From NCBI GenBank assembly GCA_016930835.1, contig JAFGGA010000133.1:10343-74342 (forward strand): a DNA stretch of 64,000 nucleotides, given 5' to 3'. This stretch comes from Deltaproteobacteria bacterium. GTDB taxonomy: Bacteria > Desulfobacterota > DSM-4660 > Desulfatiglandales > HGW-15. Shown here one piece after another: positions 3,477 through 52,926 of the stretch. The first letter of the stretch is position 1; each line of letters starts with the position of its first letter. A program made the position numbers and the translations under genes. A model generated the notes under the pieces. That model was not told the origin of the DNA. It saw nothing but the letters and a program-made list of their open reading frames with translations, and searched no databases.

Positions 3477-3701
3477 ATGGCTACTGCTAAACAGATTCAA
3501 TACAGGCTGGGTCAGGCAAAGAAAAAATTAACAAAGCAAAACAAAGACGTCACAACAACGAAAAACCTAATTAAGAAATTAGAAGCAGAGCTTAAAAAAG
3601 CTAAAACCGCAGTGAAGAAAGTAAAACCACAGAAAAAGGCCCCTGCGAAGAAGAAAGCCGCCACAGCGAAGAAAAGAAAAGTAACAAAGAAAAAGAAATA
3701 A
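3477..3701 (+). CDS. Lysine/alanine-rich histone H1-like basic protein (74 aa)
   Basis: The C-terminal half is KKAK/KKPA/AKKK low-complexity sequence. The start has a strong RBS (AAAGGAGAAAG) and sits in an AT-rich 450-nt intergenic region. Confidence 0.6.
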   Translation: MATAKQIQYRLGQAKKKLTKQNKDVTTTKNLIKKLEAELKKAKTAVKKVKPQKKAPAKKKAATAKKRKVTKKKK

Positions 3702-3815
3702 ATCTTTTTCTGTTAAGGGCAAAAAACAGAAACACCTAGGGGGCAAGGCCTTATCTGGTCATGCCCTATTTTTTTGCGTGCCAAATGATCTCCATGCACG
3801 ATTTGCAGGATCCTT

Positions 3816-4289
3816 TTATCCATAACCCCATTCATTAAGCTGCTTGATCATGTGTTCTCTATGACTACCTTTCCAAAAATATCGATTACACGAAGGACAG
3901 AAGTTGATCACCACATCGTGCTGATATTGCACATATTCGGGAAGTTTCCTTGATGATTTCTGGATATCGATTTTTTCCAATTCAACATTGCAATTCAAGC
4001 ACCGAGAAAACCATTTTGACCGATCATGCGTTAAATAACCCGCATCCTTTATTTCTTGAAGTTGCTTTTCCAAATGGTCCGATCGGATATATAAGGACTT
4101 CGGGAATCGATTCGTTAGCATCCTTCTGCGGGACAGGAGCATTCGGCCTTCATCAACCAATCGAGTGATCAAACCTTCTCCATAAAAAGATTGATAATGG
4201 GTATCATATCCCATTATTCTCAGCCATTTCGCCAATCTCCCCAACATCGTATCAGCCAAAAAGATATTTTCCACGGGATTCTCTTTCAA
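3816..4289 (-). CDS. Mut7-C RNase domain (DUF82) protein with C-terminal zinc ribbon
   Basis: The N-terminus FLADTMLGRLAKWLRIMGYDT is typical of Mut7-C. The C-terminus carries CLNCN...CPSCN cysteine pairs. Confidence 0.7.
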   Translation of the reverse strand: MKENPVENIFLADTMLGRLAKWLRIMGYDTHYQSFYGEGLITRLVDEGRMLLSRRRMLTNRFPKSLYIRSDHLEKQLQEIKDAGYLTHDRSKWFSRCLNCNVELEKIDIQKSSRKLPEYVQYQHDVVINFCPSCNRYFWKGSHREHMIKQLNEWGYG

Positions 4290-37977: not shown

Positions 37978-38400
37978 ATGATTCAGATAACCTCCGGAAT
38001 CGTCATTGATGATAAAGAGATCCAGATGGATTTTATTCGGGCATCCGGGCCAGGTGGTCAAAACGTGAACAAGGTCTCATCAGCCGTGCAACTCCGGTTT
38101 GATGTTAGAAGCTCACCGTCATTACCGGCAGATGTTCGCGCCAGGCTGATTCGTCTGGCGGGAAGGCGGGTCAATGAGAACGGTGTGTTAATTATTCACG
38201 CGAAACGATTTCGCACGCAACTTCACAATCGTCAAGACGCAATGGATCGGTTGATTGCGTTGATCAAGCGGGCTGCCGTACAGCCCAAAACGCGCCGGAG
38301 GACGAAACCCCCAGAGGCATCCAAAAAGCGCACCCTGGATGAGAAACATATCCGTGGGCAGATCAAGAGACTCAGGAAACCGGTCGACCCAGGTGAATGA
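37978..38400 (+). CDS. arfB: Alternative ribosome-rescue factor ArfB (peptidyl-tRNA hydrolase)
   Basis: The GGQ motif GPGGQNVNKV and a basic C-terminal tail. Confidence 0.9.
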   Translation: MIQITSGIVIDDKEIQMDFIRASGPGGQNVNKVSSAVQLRFDVRSSPSLPADVRARLIRLAGRRVNENGVLIIHAKRFRTQLHNRQDAMDRLIALIKRAAVQPKTRRRTKPPEASKKRTLDEKHIRGQIKRLRKPVDPGE

Positions 38401-38557
38401 TCATTGGACCTTTATGTAACTCATTACCGAAAACAAAAAATGATTTCACAATTATTTTGGTATTTTTTTTCATACCTTCAATTTACTACTTCCATCATCC
38501 ATTTATAATCAATTGAAATAATTGAACAAATCAGGCTAAGATCTCATTTTTTGGTTT

Positions 38558-38573
38558 TGGCATGTCCCTTGCT
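38558..38573 (+). promoter_or_regulatory. Sigma-54 (-24/-12) promoter candidate TGGCATgtcccTTGCT
   Basis: Matches TGGCAC-N5-TTGCW at all but one position, ~100 nt upstream of the ATG at 38677. Confidence 0.6.
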
Positions 38574-38676
38574 CTATACCGATGCAACAATACGATATCA
38601 AACGCATACAGATATCTAAAAATCCAACACATGTGGACATTAAAATTCATCTAGAGAAACAGAGGAAGTGTAAATT

Positions 38677-38829
38677 ATGAGAGTACTACTTGTTTTCTTA
38701 TACGTTATTTCAATGGGATTTGGTGTGATGGGGTTTTCTCGAATGCCCGAACCCGCTACAATGCTTTTGTTCGGGTCTAATCTGATCGGTCTGGCCGGTA
38801 TTGGCAGGAGGATGTTTGGAAAAAGATAA
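38677..38829 (+). CDS. Minimal PEP-CTERM sorting-domain protein (50 aa)
   Basis: MRVLLVFLYVISMGFGVMGFSRM-PEPATMLLFGSNLIGLAGIGRRMFGKR contains a PEP motif, a TM helix and a basic cluster at the C-terminus. An AGAGGAAG RBS precedes it. It is below the ORF-track size cutoff. Confidence 0.65.
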   Translation: MRVLLVFLYVISMGFGVMGFSRMPEPATMLLFGSNLIGLAGIGRRMFGKR

Positions 38830-38889
38830 AAAGGTCATAAATGGTGAGCATAGAAGAATAATGTTTGCTATATTGAAGGTGTTTTGAAT

Positions 38890-39114
38890 ATGAAAGATAG
38901 ACGAAATTCTTCTTTTGATAGACGAAACGGCAATGATAGACGTCGCATTTATAACCTCGATTATCTTTTAAATGGCGGGATAGAAAGGAGGAAAAGAAAA
39001 GACCGCCGGTCACCCTTTGATCGCCGCGCAGGGTGGATGAGGGTTAGTCAATGGTACAGTGTGCATCCGTCCATAATGTTATTAACAAGGAGGGTCGGTC
39101 TCAATAAGGGTTAA
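38890..39114 (+). CDS. Arg-rich 'DRR'-repeat small protein (74 aa)
   Basis: Six (D/E)RR triplets occur in the first 50 residues (KDRRNSSFDRRNGNDRRR...IERRKRKDRRSPFDRR). No family was recognised. Confidence 0.45.
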   Translation: MKDRRNSSFDRRNGNDRRRIYNLDYLLNGGIERRKRKDRRSPFDRRAGWMRVSQWYSVHPSIMLLTRRVGLNKG

Positions 39115-39217
39115 TGAACCATTTTTTTATATCTATCAGATCCTATTAAGTTTCGTGATGATTCGACCGATATTGTAGTAGATTGAGCTGTGAATAAGCT
39201 CTTTCCCCCTAAAGAAA

Positions 39218-39257
39218 AGGTCCCTGTGGCTCATGAACCATGGGGACCTTTCTTTTT
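39218..39257. terminator. Bidirectional terminator between convergent genes
   Basis: A 12-bp stem (aggtccctgtgg / ccatggggacct) is flanked by an A-run and a T-run. Confidence 0.6.
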
Positions 39258-39271
39258 GAATAATTGGTCAA

Positions 39272-40264
39272 TCAAAGCACTTGCACAATATCGTTCGCAT
39301 CGGGAATCTCTTCGTCCCAAATATGCATTAACCGGCCATCTCTAAGAAAAAGGACACGCGGTACATCACCATCCCCGAGTAAACGCAAGAAGGCATGTAG
39401 TTCGATTTGACCGATCGGGTAAGACGGCTGGTATGTTTCGATAAATGATTTCCGCTCTATTTCATCATTCGGGCTTAAGGCAAACAATCTGGGAAATCCG
39501 GGTTGGTCCGCTAAATCGCATAAGAACGGCACGGCATCTCGGCAATGAACGCAGTCCGTGAGCATAAGGACAATAAGATAATCCCCATGGGCTAAGGTCA
39601 GATCATTAATGCCCGATATTTGAAGGTGCTCGATCTCCGTCTCAATGACATTCAATCGGGGTTTGTCAATCCACGTGTCCGGAAGACCTGAGACAACAAC
39701 CGGAAGAATCAAACCCACCATCATGGCAACCGCCACAAACGCTTTTTTTATCCCGATTTTTTTTGTTTGTAGGGGATTACAACTGAACCAGGCAGGAACC
39801 AGTGCGGCCAGGAGAACCAAGTCTTCAATGAATGCCTCCGCGGGTGTCCGCACGAGCCAGGTTCCAAAACACCCGCAGTCCTCCGTCACTTGCGTGATCC
39901 AAGCCCAGACGTTTACGCCGATGAAGATCAAGAAAAGCGATGCGACAATGGTGATGGTTATTTTCGGACGATATGAAACCAAAAGCGCTGTACCTAGGAT
40001 AAACTCGGTAAAGATCAATATCCACGCTCCCAAGATGAGTAAAATAGGCTTCGATATGATATGATAGGCCTTCATTTGCTCGACAAAGAGGCGCATGTCC
40101 ATGGTTTTTATGAGAGCGGCCGTGATAAGGATAATGCCTACCGCTCCGGCTAATATACTGGCTGGTCTTAAACGCCTGCCCCCGTTGCAAATCGGGCTTT
40201 GTTGGGATGGGGTTGTTTTCCGGTTTATTAATCTCATGGGATAAAGGATCAATGTCTTTAACAC
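39272..40264 (-). CDS. MauE/DoxX-like membrane domain fused to a thioredoxin-like CxxC domain
   Basis: N-terminal multi-TMS region and a C-terminal LTDCVHCRDAVPFL motif. The start is uncertain (GTG 40264 or ATG 40237). Confidence 0.55.
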   Translation of the reverse strand: MLKTLILYPMRLINRKTTPSQQSPICNGGRRLRPASILAGAVGIILITAALIKTMDMRLFVEQMKAYHIISKPILLILGAWILIFTEFILGTALLVSYRPKITITIVASLFLIFIGVNVWAWITQVTEDCGCFGTWLVRTPAEAFIEDLVLLAALVPAWFSCNPLQTKKIGIKKAFVAVAMMVGLILPVVVSGLPDTWIDKPRLNVIETEIEHLQISGINDLTLAHGDYLIVLMLTDCVHCRDAVPFLCDLADQPGFPRLFALSPNDEIERKSFIETYQPSYPIGQIELHAFLRLLGDGDVPRVLFLRDGRLMHIWDEEIPDANDIVQVL

Positions 40265-50140: not shown

Positions 50141-51328
50141 TTATTCAATACCTCCGACGGCTTTTGAAACCGCCCAGGCTGCCTCGGTGAACTTAAATTG
50201 GGTAGAGGTCCTATAGGTGTCATATTGCAGCCGATAGTCGTCAATGAGGTGTTCCGTAAAAGGTATATCGCATTTCTCAAAGAACCTTTCCCATCCGATC
50301 CTTTCGGCCCAGTCACCGATGCGTTCATATTTGTTTGCATCTTTGGCATAAGCCTCAATGATCTTTTTAACGGCCTCGCACGTTTCCTGAAAACGCGGGA
50401 AATTATTCGGCAGGGCCGGGATCACGACCTTCGAGAATCTGGGAGGGCTGATCCGGTTGGACAGCTTTCCGCCCGCGAGAACCGTCACGCAGTCACCTTT
50501 CTGGTCGGATAAGGGCAAGGCCATACACATGGTATAGCAGTTGCCGCAAAACATACATCGTTCTTCTTTGATCTTAACCGCCTTTTTCCCTTCATCGGTC
50601 TTGGTCGGGGAGATAGCCGCCGTGGGGCAAGCCGCAATGACCAATGGGATCTCACACACACTTTCCAATACATCGGAATCGACGATGGGGGGTTTCCTGT
50701 GATAACCCAGTAGAGCGATATCCGAGCAGTGGACGGCACCGCACATGTTTAGGCAGCAGGCCATGGATACCCTCACCTGAGCGGGGAGGGTCATGCTCTG
50801 GAAGTAATCGAAAAGTTCATCCATAATGGATTTCACCATAGATGATGCGTCCGTTGCAGGCGTATGACAATGGATATACCCCTGTGTGTGAACGATGTTG
50901 GTTACACCGGCGCCGGTACCGCCAATGGGGAATTTATAACTCCCGGAGACGTGTTTCCGGCTCATGAGGTCCTTTTTTAAGGCCTCCATTTTTCCCTGGC
51001 TGTCCACCATGAATTCTATGTTATTTCGGGTCGTAAACCGGACATATCCGTCACAATATTTGTCGGCGATATCGCAAATTTCGCGGATGTTTTCGACGGT
51101 CATAAAACGGCATCCGCCGCAACGGACCGTAAATACCTTGTCTCCGTTTTCGGCCACATGCACGAGCACCCCTGGTTCCAGGATTTCATGATAGGCCCAT
51201 TTGCCGTAATTTTGTTGAATAATAGGTGGAAAATACTGCCAAAAATGCCTCGGCCCCAAGTCCGTGAGCCTGTTTTCCATGGGTTTTGCAGGATTAAATA
51301 GTCCTAATCTTTCAGTCGATAATGCCAT
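50141..51328 (-). CDS. dsrB: Dissimilatory sulfite reductase beta subunit
   Basis: [39 protein letters not shown] and [11 protein letters not shown]. Confidence 0.95.
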
Positions 51329-51342
51329 TGTTATAACCTCCT

Positions 51343-52764
51343 CTATCTCTTATGTCTGGAGCGATAATCTTTAATGTCTCTCTTCCAGCCGCCCGGCACA
51401 TCCTCTTCCTTCCAGAAGATGTATGGGTTGGAGCGGGGTTCTTTTACCATCTGCGGCATAGCCGGTATTCCCAGAACCTCTATCAGTTTAGGAATACCTT
51501 GGCGTTGAATGAGCTCTCCAAGTCGCTCGCGGTTTTTACCTTCCTCCATCCACCAATCCCAGATTGGTTCCACGACTTTTTCTTTGATATTGTCGTAGGG
51601 GGGGTCTGTTTTCATAAAGGGGATGGTTAGGAGGGCCATCTGAGCTCCTTCCAAAATCGGGGCCTTGGCACCTAAAAGGATGCTGACGCCGGTGTCTTTT
51701 CCCGGTCTGAGCGCCCTGGGCATGACGTTAATACAATGCATACATCGGGTGCATTCCTTATTGTCGATCATTAATTTATCGCCTTCCATCCACATACACT
51801 GCGTCGGACAAAGGTTGATCACTTCTTTATGTATATCAAATTGCCCCCAGTCTCTTCCGGAGTGGGCGCCGCCGTTGGGCATGATCTCACCACCCATGTA
51901 AGCCTTTACCGCCTCTTGATCGATCCGAATCTCATCTCGCCATGTCCCGATAAAAGACATGTCCGAACGGGCTATGGAGGCCACGCAACCATTTGGACAC
52001 CCGTCAAACTTGAATTTGAATTTATACGGAAAAGCGGGTCTGTGCAATTCATCCTGGTAATAGTGTGTCAATTCATAGCACATGTCCTGGGTGTCAATGC
52101 ATGACCATTCGCATCGGGCCTTTCCGATGCAGCATGAAGGCGTCCTTAGATTAGAGCCGGATCCTCCTAGATCTTGTTGAAGGACATGTCCCAGTTCAAA
52201 GAAGATCGGTTCCAGCTGCTCGGTAAAGGTGCCGAGGAAAATGATGTCTCCTGTGGAACCGTGCATGTTCATCATTCCGCTACCGCGGTATTCCCAGAGA
52301 TCACAAATTGTCCTTAAATAGTCAGATGTGTAGAATTTACTGGCTGGCTGATTGACACGCATGGTGTGGAAATGGGCGATTGAGGGGAATTGTTCCTGGA
52401 GATCAGAGTATCGACCGATTACACCACCTCCATAACCAAATACGCCCACGATGCCGCCGTGTTTCCAGTGCGTTTCGCCATGTTTGAAAGAAACCTCCAA
52501 TTGACCCAATAAATCCTCGACCACATCCCTTTCAATCATCATGCGATCCTGAGCCAATTTTTTCCTGTGGAGGGCTTCCCGTTTGGCATCCGCTACAAAG
52601 CTCGGCCACCGGCCTTTTTCCAGCTCTTCACAAAAAGGGATGTCGTGCTTGATCTTGAAATTTTTGAGCTCTTCTTCCGTGTAATTATGCAGTTCTTCAT
52701 CGGAAAAGATTCTAAGCTCTTGGTACTTTAATTGTTTTTGCTCTTCTCTTGGTTCAAAAGCCAT
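51343..52764 (-). CDS. dsrA: Dissimilatory sulfite reductase alpha subunit
   Basis: [29 protein letters not shown] and [13 protein letters not shown]. The ATG at 52764 lies 8 nt after AAGGAGG. Confidence 0.95.
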
Positions 52765-52926
52765 TACAAATGCCTCCTTTTGCATTAATAGACGTTGATA
52801 AAAACTCTAAGGGGCGACCCCGGAAGACTTTCGTTGATTTGTCCGATTTTCACCTCCTCCCTAAATGATGAAACAACAAAATATAACAAAAATATATTAT
52901 TTGTGAAATTTTCGACAATCTCAATC

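Follow-up and report, generated by a model that had tools for sequence, protein, structure and literature searches.

A 64,000-nt stretch of contig JAFGGA010000133.1 (hereafter the window), from the metagenome-assembled genome (MAG) of an uncultured sulfate reducer labelled 'Deltaproteobacteria bacterium' in GenBank, carries a small two-gene unit. In this unit, a -24/-12 (sigma-54-type) promoter precedes a 50-aa membrane peptide with the layout of a PEP-CTERM sorting tag and a 74-aa arginine-rich protein with repeated (D/E)RR triplets (the DRR protein), followed by an intrinsic terminator (Table 1). A conserved promoter, two genes under selection, a terminator and a fixed position in four lineages define the unit, which we favour, with somewhat better than even confidence, as a small and tightly regulated operon, an inducible small-protein module that would be linked to the control of exopolysaccharide and biofilm. 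The positions and sequences of the promoter, the 50-aa open reading frame (ORF), its ribosome-binding site and the arginine-rich ORF with its six triplets, as proposed in an earlier sequence-only reading of the region, were all confirmed.

Table 1. Features of the two-gene unit and its flanks, in window coordinates (EBP, enhancer-binding protein).
Feature	Sequence or motif	Position	Strand	Basis or remark
Conserved upstream element E1	TATGTAACTCATTACC, inverted repeat GTAA-N4-TTAC	38413..38428	+	~130 nt upstream of -24; candidate EBP site
Conserved upstream element E2	AAAAAATGATTTCACA	38435..38450	+	mostly retained in three of four lineages, diverged in L007
Conserved upstream element E3	GGTATTTTTTTTCATACC, inverted repeat GGTAT-N8-ATACC	38459..38476	+	~81 nt upstream of -24
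Sigma-54 (-24/-12) promoter	TGGCATgtcccTTGCT / TGGCATGTCCCTTGCT, TGGCAT-GTCCC-TTGCT	38558..38573	+	consensus scan and conservation in four lineages
Promoter-proximal region and 5' leader	includes ATACCGATGCAAC (38576-38588) and Shine-Dalgarno sequence AGAGGAAG (38661-38668)	38574..38676	+	
50-aa mini PEP-CTERM-type membrane peptide	MRVLLVFLYVISMGFGVMGFSRMPEPATMLLFGSNLIGLAGIGRRMFGKR	38677..38829	+	ORF list; orthologues; dN/dS
74-aa DRR-domain protein	six (D/E)RR triplets, GWMRVSQWYSV motif	38890..39114	+	dN/dS; profile searches
Intrinsic terminator of the two-gene unit	14-bp stem (7 G-C pairs), then CTTTTTG	39216..39258	+	terminator scan

Conservation of the two-gene unit

The promoter and the two ORFs recur, along with their spacing, at the same chromosomal position in four diverged lineages, namely the window itself (Logan contig L001), P0004 (contigs L002-L006), P0005 (L007) and P0006/P0001 (L009/L010), which were recovered by exact-sequence look-ups and homologue searches. 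The unit sits after tex and arfB in those lineages whose contigs reach far enough upstream; downstream sequence is available for the window and the L002-L006 lineage, and in both the unit is followed by the mauE-like and nadA genes in convergent orientation. All peptide orthologues are 50 aa long and share 78-90% identity, and both the order of the two genes (peptide, then DRR) and an intergenic gap of 60-64 nt are constant. The ratio of nonsynonymous to synonymous substitution rates (dN/dS, Nei-Gojobori) is 0.04-0.10 for the peptide and 0.04-0.22 for the DRR gene at a dS of ~1-3 between lineages, which is near saturation, and hence both ORFs are genuine protein-coding genes under purifying selection. 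The conservation of promoter, ORFs and gap exceeds chance. Further peptide lineages were sought in the JGI metagenome collection with degenerate protein and 44-nt degenerate DNA patterns, and none was returned.

In the window, the consensus TGGCAY-N5-TTGCW has a single match on both strands, compared with 0.16 expected from shuffled sequence. It lies 103 nt before the ATG of the 50-aa ORF and predicts a transcription start at ~38583-38585, which would leave a leader of ~93 nt. The GG and GC of the -24 and -12 elements and the spacing between them are invariant in the alignment of the four lineages, and the intervening bases vary by lineage (GTCCC, AGCCC or GCCCC; TGGCAC-GGTCT-TTGCG in L009). 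A single consensus match in 64 kb that is kept in four lineages thus bears out the assignment of a sigma-54-type promoter made from the sequence alone.

A pattern scan found no terminator-like site in the 60-nt gap between the two ORFs; its sole good match, a hairpin with a T-run, lies downstream of the DRR ORF, with the hairpin itself (39216-39251) between that ORF and the convergent MauE-like gene. Since the gap contains no terminator, one follows the DRR ORF and the gap measures 60-64 nt everywhere, the two genes are taken to form one transcription unit, in agreement with the sequence-only reading. The hairpin is retained despite base changes in the L002 lineage, and the terminator may serve both convergent sides, the unit and the MauE-like gene.

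The same reading had described the 50-aa ORF as missed by its ORF track, but in public data it is annotated: the GenBank record contains it as MBN1849167.1, a 'PEP-CTERM sorting domain-containing protein', and it is the DRR ORF that is uncalled. The accessions MBN1849166-170 run contiguously through ArfB, the 50-aa peptide, the MauE-like protein, NadA and FdhD, the DRR gene being absent, and the Logan call for L001 omits it as well; gene callers often miss this family.

The 50-aa peptide

The Shine-Dalgarno sequence of the peptide gene ends 8 nt before the ATG. The peptide consists of a hydrophobic helix (residues 2-19), a loop (FSRMPE), a PEP motif (24-26), a second helix (26-48) and a basic tail (RRMFGKR), so that its C-terminus, PEPATMLLFGSNLIGLAGIGRRMFGKR-stop, presents a PEP motif, a hydrophobic helix with its hydropathy peak at residues 27-43, and a basic cluster. 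An AlphaFold model of the peptide is a helical hairpin with the PEP motif in the turn (predicted local distance difference test, pLDDT, 72.7), and hydropathy and model together give two helices with positive charges at both ends. The four orthologues do not differ in P24, E25, the following AT(M), the helix or the basic tail. The last ~30 residues of the peptide, 56-60% of the query, are 70-79% identical to tails that pass PF07589. Its NCBIfam matches number 11, all below cut-off: nine are to PEP-CTERM families (floc_PepA, THxN, EDSAP-1, XDP1 and others) at their C-terminal ends, one is to a related tag, VPLPA-CTERM, and one, to AdrA, is marginal.

Two candidate signal-peptide cleavage sites can be recognized, SMG|F after residue 14, which is conserved, and GFS|R after residue 21, which is variable (GFS, GIT, GIN). 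The passenger between a candidate cleavage site and the PEP motif would amount to 2-9 residues and thus be effectively absent: cleavage at the conserved SMG|F would leave ~9 residues before PEP, and otherwise there is no passenger. This agrees with the proposal that almost no mature passenger would remain.

The DRR protein and its family

The DRR ORF starts with an ATG at 38890, and an in-frame TTG at 38884 is also open. The protein has an isoelectric point (pI) of 11.75, a net charge of +13.6 and 23% arginine, and an AlphaFold model built with 120 homologues has no confident fold (pLDDT 59.5). As the sequence-only reading had found, it cannot be assigned to a known family: sequence searches of Pfam, NCBIfam, PADLOC and PDB returned no match, and nothing relevant came from literature string searches on the DRR motif or on PilZ combined with arginine-rich.

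It has, however, many uncharacterized relatives. Among 1.84 billion cluster representatives (50% identity), a search with a profile returned at least 532 clusters at E<=1e-3, 179 of them at E<=1e-10, and a second search gave >770 clusters at 90% identity; no name except 'hypothetical protein' is attached to any of the 120 listed 90%-clusters. Among 150 listed matches the median length is 83 aa; the 50%-clusters derive from public genomes and metagenomes and are mostly 60-120 aa long. The family shares a core of ~60 aa, DRRSGxDRRkxYdLDYFlnGGvERRxxkERRSxxERRxGWvRVSxWSSV, in which columns D10, R11, R12, R18, R34, R40, R46, W55 and S57 are invariant. The general pattern, DRR-x3-DRR ... Y-x-LDYF-x2-GG-x-ERR-x3-(D/E)RR-x3-(D/E)RR-xGW-x-RV-x2-W-S-S-V, is also that of the window protein, which scores 93 bits (E = 3e-27) against a hidden Markov model (HMM) built from 50 sequences that include the window protein itself. 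The DRR family is thus large, undescribed and represented by no Pfam or NCBIfam model, and deserves a domain definition of its own.

Several relatives carry the module in fusion with other domains. In P0060, P0095 and P0238 an N-terminal DRR module is joined to a C-terminal PilZ domain (Pfam matches), and P0160, P0166 and P0172 have, as judged by eye, the same architecture of ~190 aa; P0107 carries an N-terminal GGDEF domain fused to DRR, and P0146 is a zinc ribbon fusion. The window protein itself has no Pfam match to PilZ (PF07238). Because its relatives are fused to PilZ and GGDEF, the family may be tied to cyclic di-GMP (c-di-GMP) signalling, and most economically DRR would be a cytoplasmic module, disordered until bound, with affinity for a polyanionic ligand or partner and a link to this second messenger.

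A contig scan of GTDB with the DRR alignment yielded ten loci, covering relatives of 41-56% identity only; the window genome is not among them. All ten are in MAGs; one is labelled Pseudomonadota, and the other nine carry the labels Desulfobacterales, Desulfobacterium, Desulfocapsaceae, Desulfopila, Desulfobulbaceae or 'Deltaproteobacteria'. The neighbours of DRR genes differ from locus to locus, and include fxsA, NifU, CGGC and DUF924 genes, lipoproteins, an HD-GYP protein and a position between a DeaD helicase and a U32 peptidase. Often they carry a signal peptide or transmembrane (TM) segments, as in Gly-zipper, lipocalin and DUF proteins, which gives the contexts a loose connection to the cell envelope. 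One lineage has the DRR gene directly after the inner-membrane gene fxsA (L008 2252-2894; L011 294-937; L013 5580-6223), with a gap of 2 nt in L011 and, in L008, an interrupted frame of which only the C-terminal 48 aa are called. A Desulfobulbaceae MAG (L016) has two tandem DRR-family ORFs, 3542-3817 and 3762-4157, which overlap in different frames.

Upstream elements and promoter signature

The three conserved elements upstream of the promoter, E1 to E3, are AT-rich, and the first begins 13 nt after the arfB stop codon. In the alignment, E1 is unchanged in the L002 lineage, reads TATGTAACTCTTTACC in L009 and has diverged in L007, and the core of E3 (TTTCAyACC) is without change in all four lineages, L007 having a perfect 6-4-6 palindrome (GTGAAA-ATCA-TTTCAC) at this place. 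We infer that E1 and E3 are candidate EBP (activator) sites, since both are inverted repeats and stand within the 80-145 nt upstream of -24 where EBPs usually sit. The resemblance of E3 to the half-sites of the PrsR-box is weak. A site for IHF in the AT-rich spacer was looked for by eye and discarded, there being no fit to WATCAANNNNTTR.

Immediately downstream of the -12 element, the promoter resembles that of a PEP-CTERM gene of Desulfovibrio vulgaris Hildenborough. On the plasmid pDV1 of this organism lie xrt, epsI, prsK and the gene for a sigma-54 regulator, and DVU_RS16040, a THxN-family PEP-CTERM gene, adjoins the XrtA/PrsK cluster. Its promoter reads TGGAAC-AGTCA-TTGCT-TA-ATACC-ATGCAAC, compared with TGGCAT-N5-TTGCT-CT-ATACC-G-ATGCAAC in the window. 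When 455 kb of compared DNA were scanned on both strands, ATAC[CT]-N0-1-ATGCAAC occurred only at the promoters of the window, the L002 lineage and DVU_RS16040, always 2 nt after TTGCT; the pDV1 site is at ~1612-1624 of L028 (minus strand), and the window copy (38576-38588) spans the predicted start site. The shared signature supports, with DVU_RS16040 as the single comparator, a common promoter class, and ATACC(G)ATGCAAC may serve the phylum's PEP-CTERM genes as an extended promoter or initiation signature. A blastn search of promoter and leader against plasmids gave nothing useful.

A riboswitch or small RNA in the leader was also considered and dropped. The leader folds no better than shuffled sequence (z = 0.28, not significant) and has no Rfam match; over 38350-39300, Rfam gave a single chance miRNA-like match, on the terminator hairpin.

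Proposed function and alternative explanations

In the reading that we favour, the unit would be transcribed by the sigma-54 holoenzyme together with an EBP acting on the conserved elements 80-145 nt upstream, by analogy with the control of PEP-CTERM genes by PrsK/PrsR elsewhere. The peptide would insert into the inner membrane as a helical hairpin with both ends (the M-R/K N-terminus and the RRMFGKR C-terminus) in the cytoplasm and the PEP motif in a short periplasmic turn, which would be the geometry that an exosortase recognises. Because the passenger is at most ~9 residues, the peptide cannot be a matrix or surface protein, and its most likely role would be regulatory, as a minimal substrate or ligand of an exosortase; it could occupy the sorting enzyme or report on it, or be processed to a very short peptide. 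The DRR protein would be cytoplasmic, extremely basic and unstructured alone. Its extreme basicity, the lack of a fold of its own and the PilZ and GGDEF fusions of its relatives suggest that it is most likely an adaptor for a polyanionic ligand (c-di-GMP or nucleic acid), which would place it in a biofilm and envelope signalling network.

A bolder version of this scheme, which we consider quite improbable, has a passenger-less exosortase substrate whose processing, or whose occupancy of the enzyme, is itself the signal, for example as a feedback or priming substrate or as the precursor of a released or lipid- or exopolysaccharide-linked peptide of ~9-11 residues. The DRR protein would then be the first of a new class of arginine-ladder adaptors, with c-di-GMP or nucleic acid as their ligand, and the pair would couple envelope sorting to second-messenger signalling in Desulfobacterota. 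Roles of the peptide as decoy, signal or anchor are speculation.

Several results weigh against the favoured reading, and they are given here together with the alternatives on which they bear. The peptide had been described as a textbook PEP-CTERM domain. With regard to layout (PEP motif, TM helix, basic tail) this description stands, but the curated HMM scores fall below the cut-offs for membership: the peptide reaches 12.5 bits with TIGR02595 (cut-off 16) and 18.5 bits with PF07589 (cut-off 20.7), and all four orthologues are sub-threshold (12.5 bits, no match and 14.1 bits with TIGR02595), the one without a TIGR02595 match (P0005) having PEA for PEP. The genuine tails P0007, P0008 and P0010 score 25-28 bits on the same model. 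A sub-threshold score on the PEP-CTERM HMM had been named beforehand as refuting the assignment, and this is what TIGR02595 returned; yet only PEP-CTERM-type tails match the peptide well, and the name given by NCBI agrees. Within the window, moreover, there is no exosortase by a TM-count screen and by Pfam on 20 of the ~50 long ORFs, a set that includes every non-overlapping ORF of >=200 aa with >=4 predicted TM segments; a six-frame motif scan found no second PEP-CTERM-like tail, and neither PrsK nor PrsR is present.

The peptide could accordingly be a small two-helix inner-membrane protein that derives from, or has converged on, a PEP-CTERM tail and is no longer an exosortase substrate; it would modulate, e.g., a sensor kinase or a transporter, with the DRR protein as its cytoplasmic partner or as a co-regulated factor. 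HMM scores at about half those of genuine tails (12.5-14.1 vs 25-28 bits), a third PEP residue that is not fixed and the lack of a nearby exosortase locus are all in line with this, as is the N-terminal hydrophobic stretch, which with 18 residues is long for a Sec signal peptide and typical of a TM helix. The -1 and -3 residues of the distal cleavage site also vary, the proximal SMG (residues 12-14) being conserved. However, the invariant P24, E25, AT(M), helix and basic tail are the very part that an exosortase would read, the promoter signature is common to a true PEP-CTERM gene, and PEP-CTERM genes are usually scattered from the xrt locus (PMC1569441), so that we regard such a protein as possible but on the unlikely side.

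The place of the DRR protein in the favoured reading is open to similar doubt. PEP-CTERM genes mostly form single-gene operons (PMC1569441), whereas the unit in the window has two genes. Conservation of the peptide/DRR pair in relatives, which had been put forward as a check, was found in four lineages of one small clade and no further: the other DRR loci examined (L008, L011-L027) have neither the peptide nor a sigma-54 consensus near the DRR gene, the nearest approach being a loose GG-N10-GC match ~580 nt upstream in L018. The link of DRR to PEP-CTERM is therefore local and not a property of the family, and what suggests its link to c-di-GMP is domain fusions only. It is conceivable, though rather doubtful, that PEP-CTERM sorting does not involve the DRR protein, which would be a general basic nucleic-acid- or ribosome-binding protein, co-transcribed with the peptide gene in this clade only. 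The many unrelated gene contexts of the family fit this, as do the arginine content, the pI and the disorder-like prediction; against it, four lineages with saturated synonymous sites retain the gene order and the 60-64 nt junction, and recurrent fusions to PilZ and GGDEF favour second-messenger signalling over housekeeping nucleic-acid binding.

Regulation is the third point. Of 167 proteobacterial PEP-CTERM genes, 99 have a 17-nt activator motif ending in TTTACA (motif 1) and then a sigma-54 motif, with a spacer of 32-92 nt between them (Haft 2006, PMC1569441). No convincing PrsR-box (motif 1) was found upstream of the promoter in the window, and the best matches to an assumed palindrome, TGTAAA-N5-TTTACA, have >=4 mismatches; the D. 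vulgaris sites also fit this guess poorly, so that the palindrome is unreliable. A TTTACT (38482-38487) occurs 69 nt upstream of the -24/-12 element and is not conserved in the other lineages. Six-frame searches of the window by regular expression revealed neither an EBP (GAFTGA) nor rpoN (RpoN-box). A further alternative, to which we give little credence, has the -24/-12 match unused and the unit expressed from a sigma-70 promoter or through read-through of arfB. It could draw on the lack of an activator gene in the window, on a site matching at 10 of 12 positions (TTTACT-16-TATAAT, 38482-38509) inside the enhancer-promoter spacer, and on the pattern scan, in which no terminator was detected between the arfB stop (38400) and the promoter. 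Yet in the alignment these hexamers are unconserved in the other three lineages, whereas GG/GC and their spacing are invariant, and the five sigma-70-like sites in the region are near the shuffle expectation of 3.6.

Decay of a larger PEP-CTERM gene, with loss of the passenger domain and the 50-aa ORF as what is left of it, would fit the tag-only architecture and sub-threshold scores but is very improbable, as the ORF has exactly 50 codons in four lineages, a dN/dS of 0.04-0.10 at a dS of ~1 or higher, which contradicts a pseudogene, and a conserved Shine-Dalgarno sequence and promoter.

Exosortase biology is still inferred largely from genomics, and the position of PEP-CTERM cleavage and its acceptor are poorly defined. 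If the favoured reading is true, a natural substrate that is minimal, conserved and regulated would be a convenient handle for the biochemistry of exosortase recognition, and sorting tags may be reused as regulators. The PilZ and GGDEF fusions of the DRR family likewise amount to a testable prediction on c-di-GMP signalling in sulfate reducers. Neither the minimal substrate nor the DRR family upsets current understanding.

Neighbouring genes and host

Downstream of the terminator, a membrane protein of 330 aa is encoded convergently on the minus strand (39272-40264). It is hypothetical in GenBank, Pfam matched a MauE domain only, and its C-terminal half contains, by eye, a CxxC motif (CVHC) and a hint of a thioredoxin-like part. 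Elsewhere in the window, a NIR_SIR-domain protein (480 aa) adjoins a 395-aa ORF (50141-52785), and DsrD is encoded at the syntenic place in L002 (12470-12700). Together, the NIR_SIR protein and the DsrD of L002 indicate a dissimilatory sulfite reductase locus, and hence a sulfate or sulfite reducer as host.

Comparison with known systems

Some small inner-membrane regulators are induced by the pathway that they modulate, as in the case of MgrB and PhoQ. By analogy, the peptide may be compared with regulators of the MgrB type in its size of ~50 aa, its predicted membrane topology (hairpin or single span) and its presumably tight, inducible expression; MgrB and the peptide have no sequence relationship, and the likeness is one of analogy. 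The DRR protein can be set beside PilZ-type c-di-GMP receptors with N-terminal accessory domains, as the DRR module is N-terminal in the recurrent fusions; unlike these receptors, the window protein has no PilZ domain, and the DRR module is not in Pfam or NCBIfam.

The closest parallel is the PEP-CTERM/XrtA-EpsH system, with which the peptide shares the PEP motif, the hydrophobic helix, the C-terminal Arg/Lys cluster and a hydrophobic N-terminus. The host also fits, as it belongs to the group that includes Desulfovibrio and Geobacter, both of which possess EpsH and PrsK/PrsR/PrsT (PMC1569441). In contrast to XrtA substrates, which normally have passengers of hundreds of residues, the peptide retains ~9 at most, and its HMM scores are sub-cut-off. 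Its best NCBIfam model is floc_PepA (NF033554) of Aquincola and Zoogloea, which gives 24.8 bits over its last 32 positions; this model has 261 positions, implying a real secreted domain, and a whole-protein cut-off of 80 bits, so that the tag alone is shared. The protein encoded by DVU_RS16040 is likewise much larger (286 aa), and nothing in the window clearly corresponds to TGTCGGATAGGTTGACA, the enhancer-like sequence upstream of its promoter on pDV1. Elsewhere on pDV1 (L029), close to the XrtA cluster, a 119-aa PilZ gene (DVU_RS16025, 32118-32477) lies divergently upstream of the PEP-CTERM gene DVU_RS16030 (33321-34022), an anecdotal link between a c-di-GMP receptor and PEP-CTERM.

With respect to regulation, the association of PEP-CTERM genes with sigma-54, to which the sequence-only reading had appealed, is the published norm and not new (PMC1569441, PMC9850573). 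The mean distance from the sigma-54 motif to the start codon is 71 nt (range 23-221), and long upstream regions are typical of most PEP-CTERM genes (Haft 2006, PMC1569441). For pepA of Aquincola, RpoN dependence was demonstrated experimentally and the start site mapped, the sigma-54 promoter being TGGCAC / CTGCTT (PMC9850573). The window promoter, at 103 nt before the ATG, is inside the published range, and the 276-nt non-coding stretch between arfB and the peptide gene is similarly long; unlike in the PrsK/PrsR regulon, no PrsR-box was recognised, and no exosortase or PrsK/PrsR lies within the 64 kb. The unit is thus an unusual form of the known PEP-CTERM/sigma-54 system and not a new kind of system, the unusual points being the conserved passenger-less architecture, the sub-threshold tag and the clade-specific co-transcription with an undescribed DRR family that is linked to PilZ and GGDEF.

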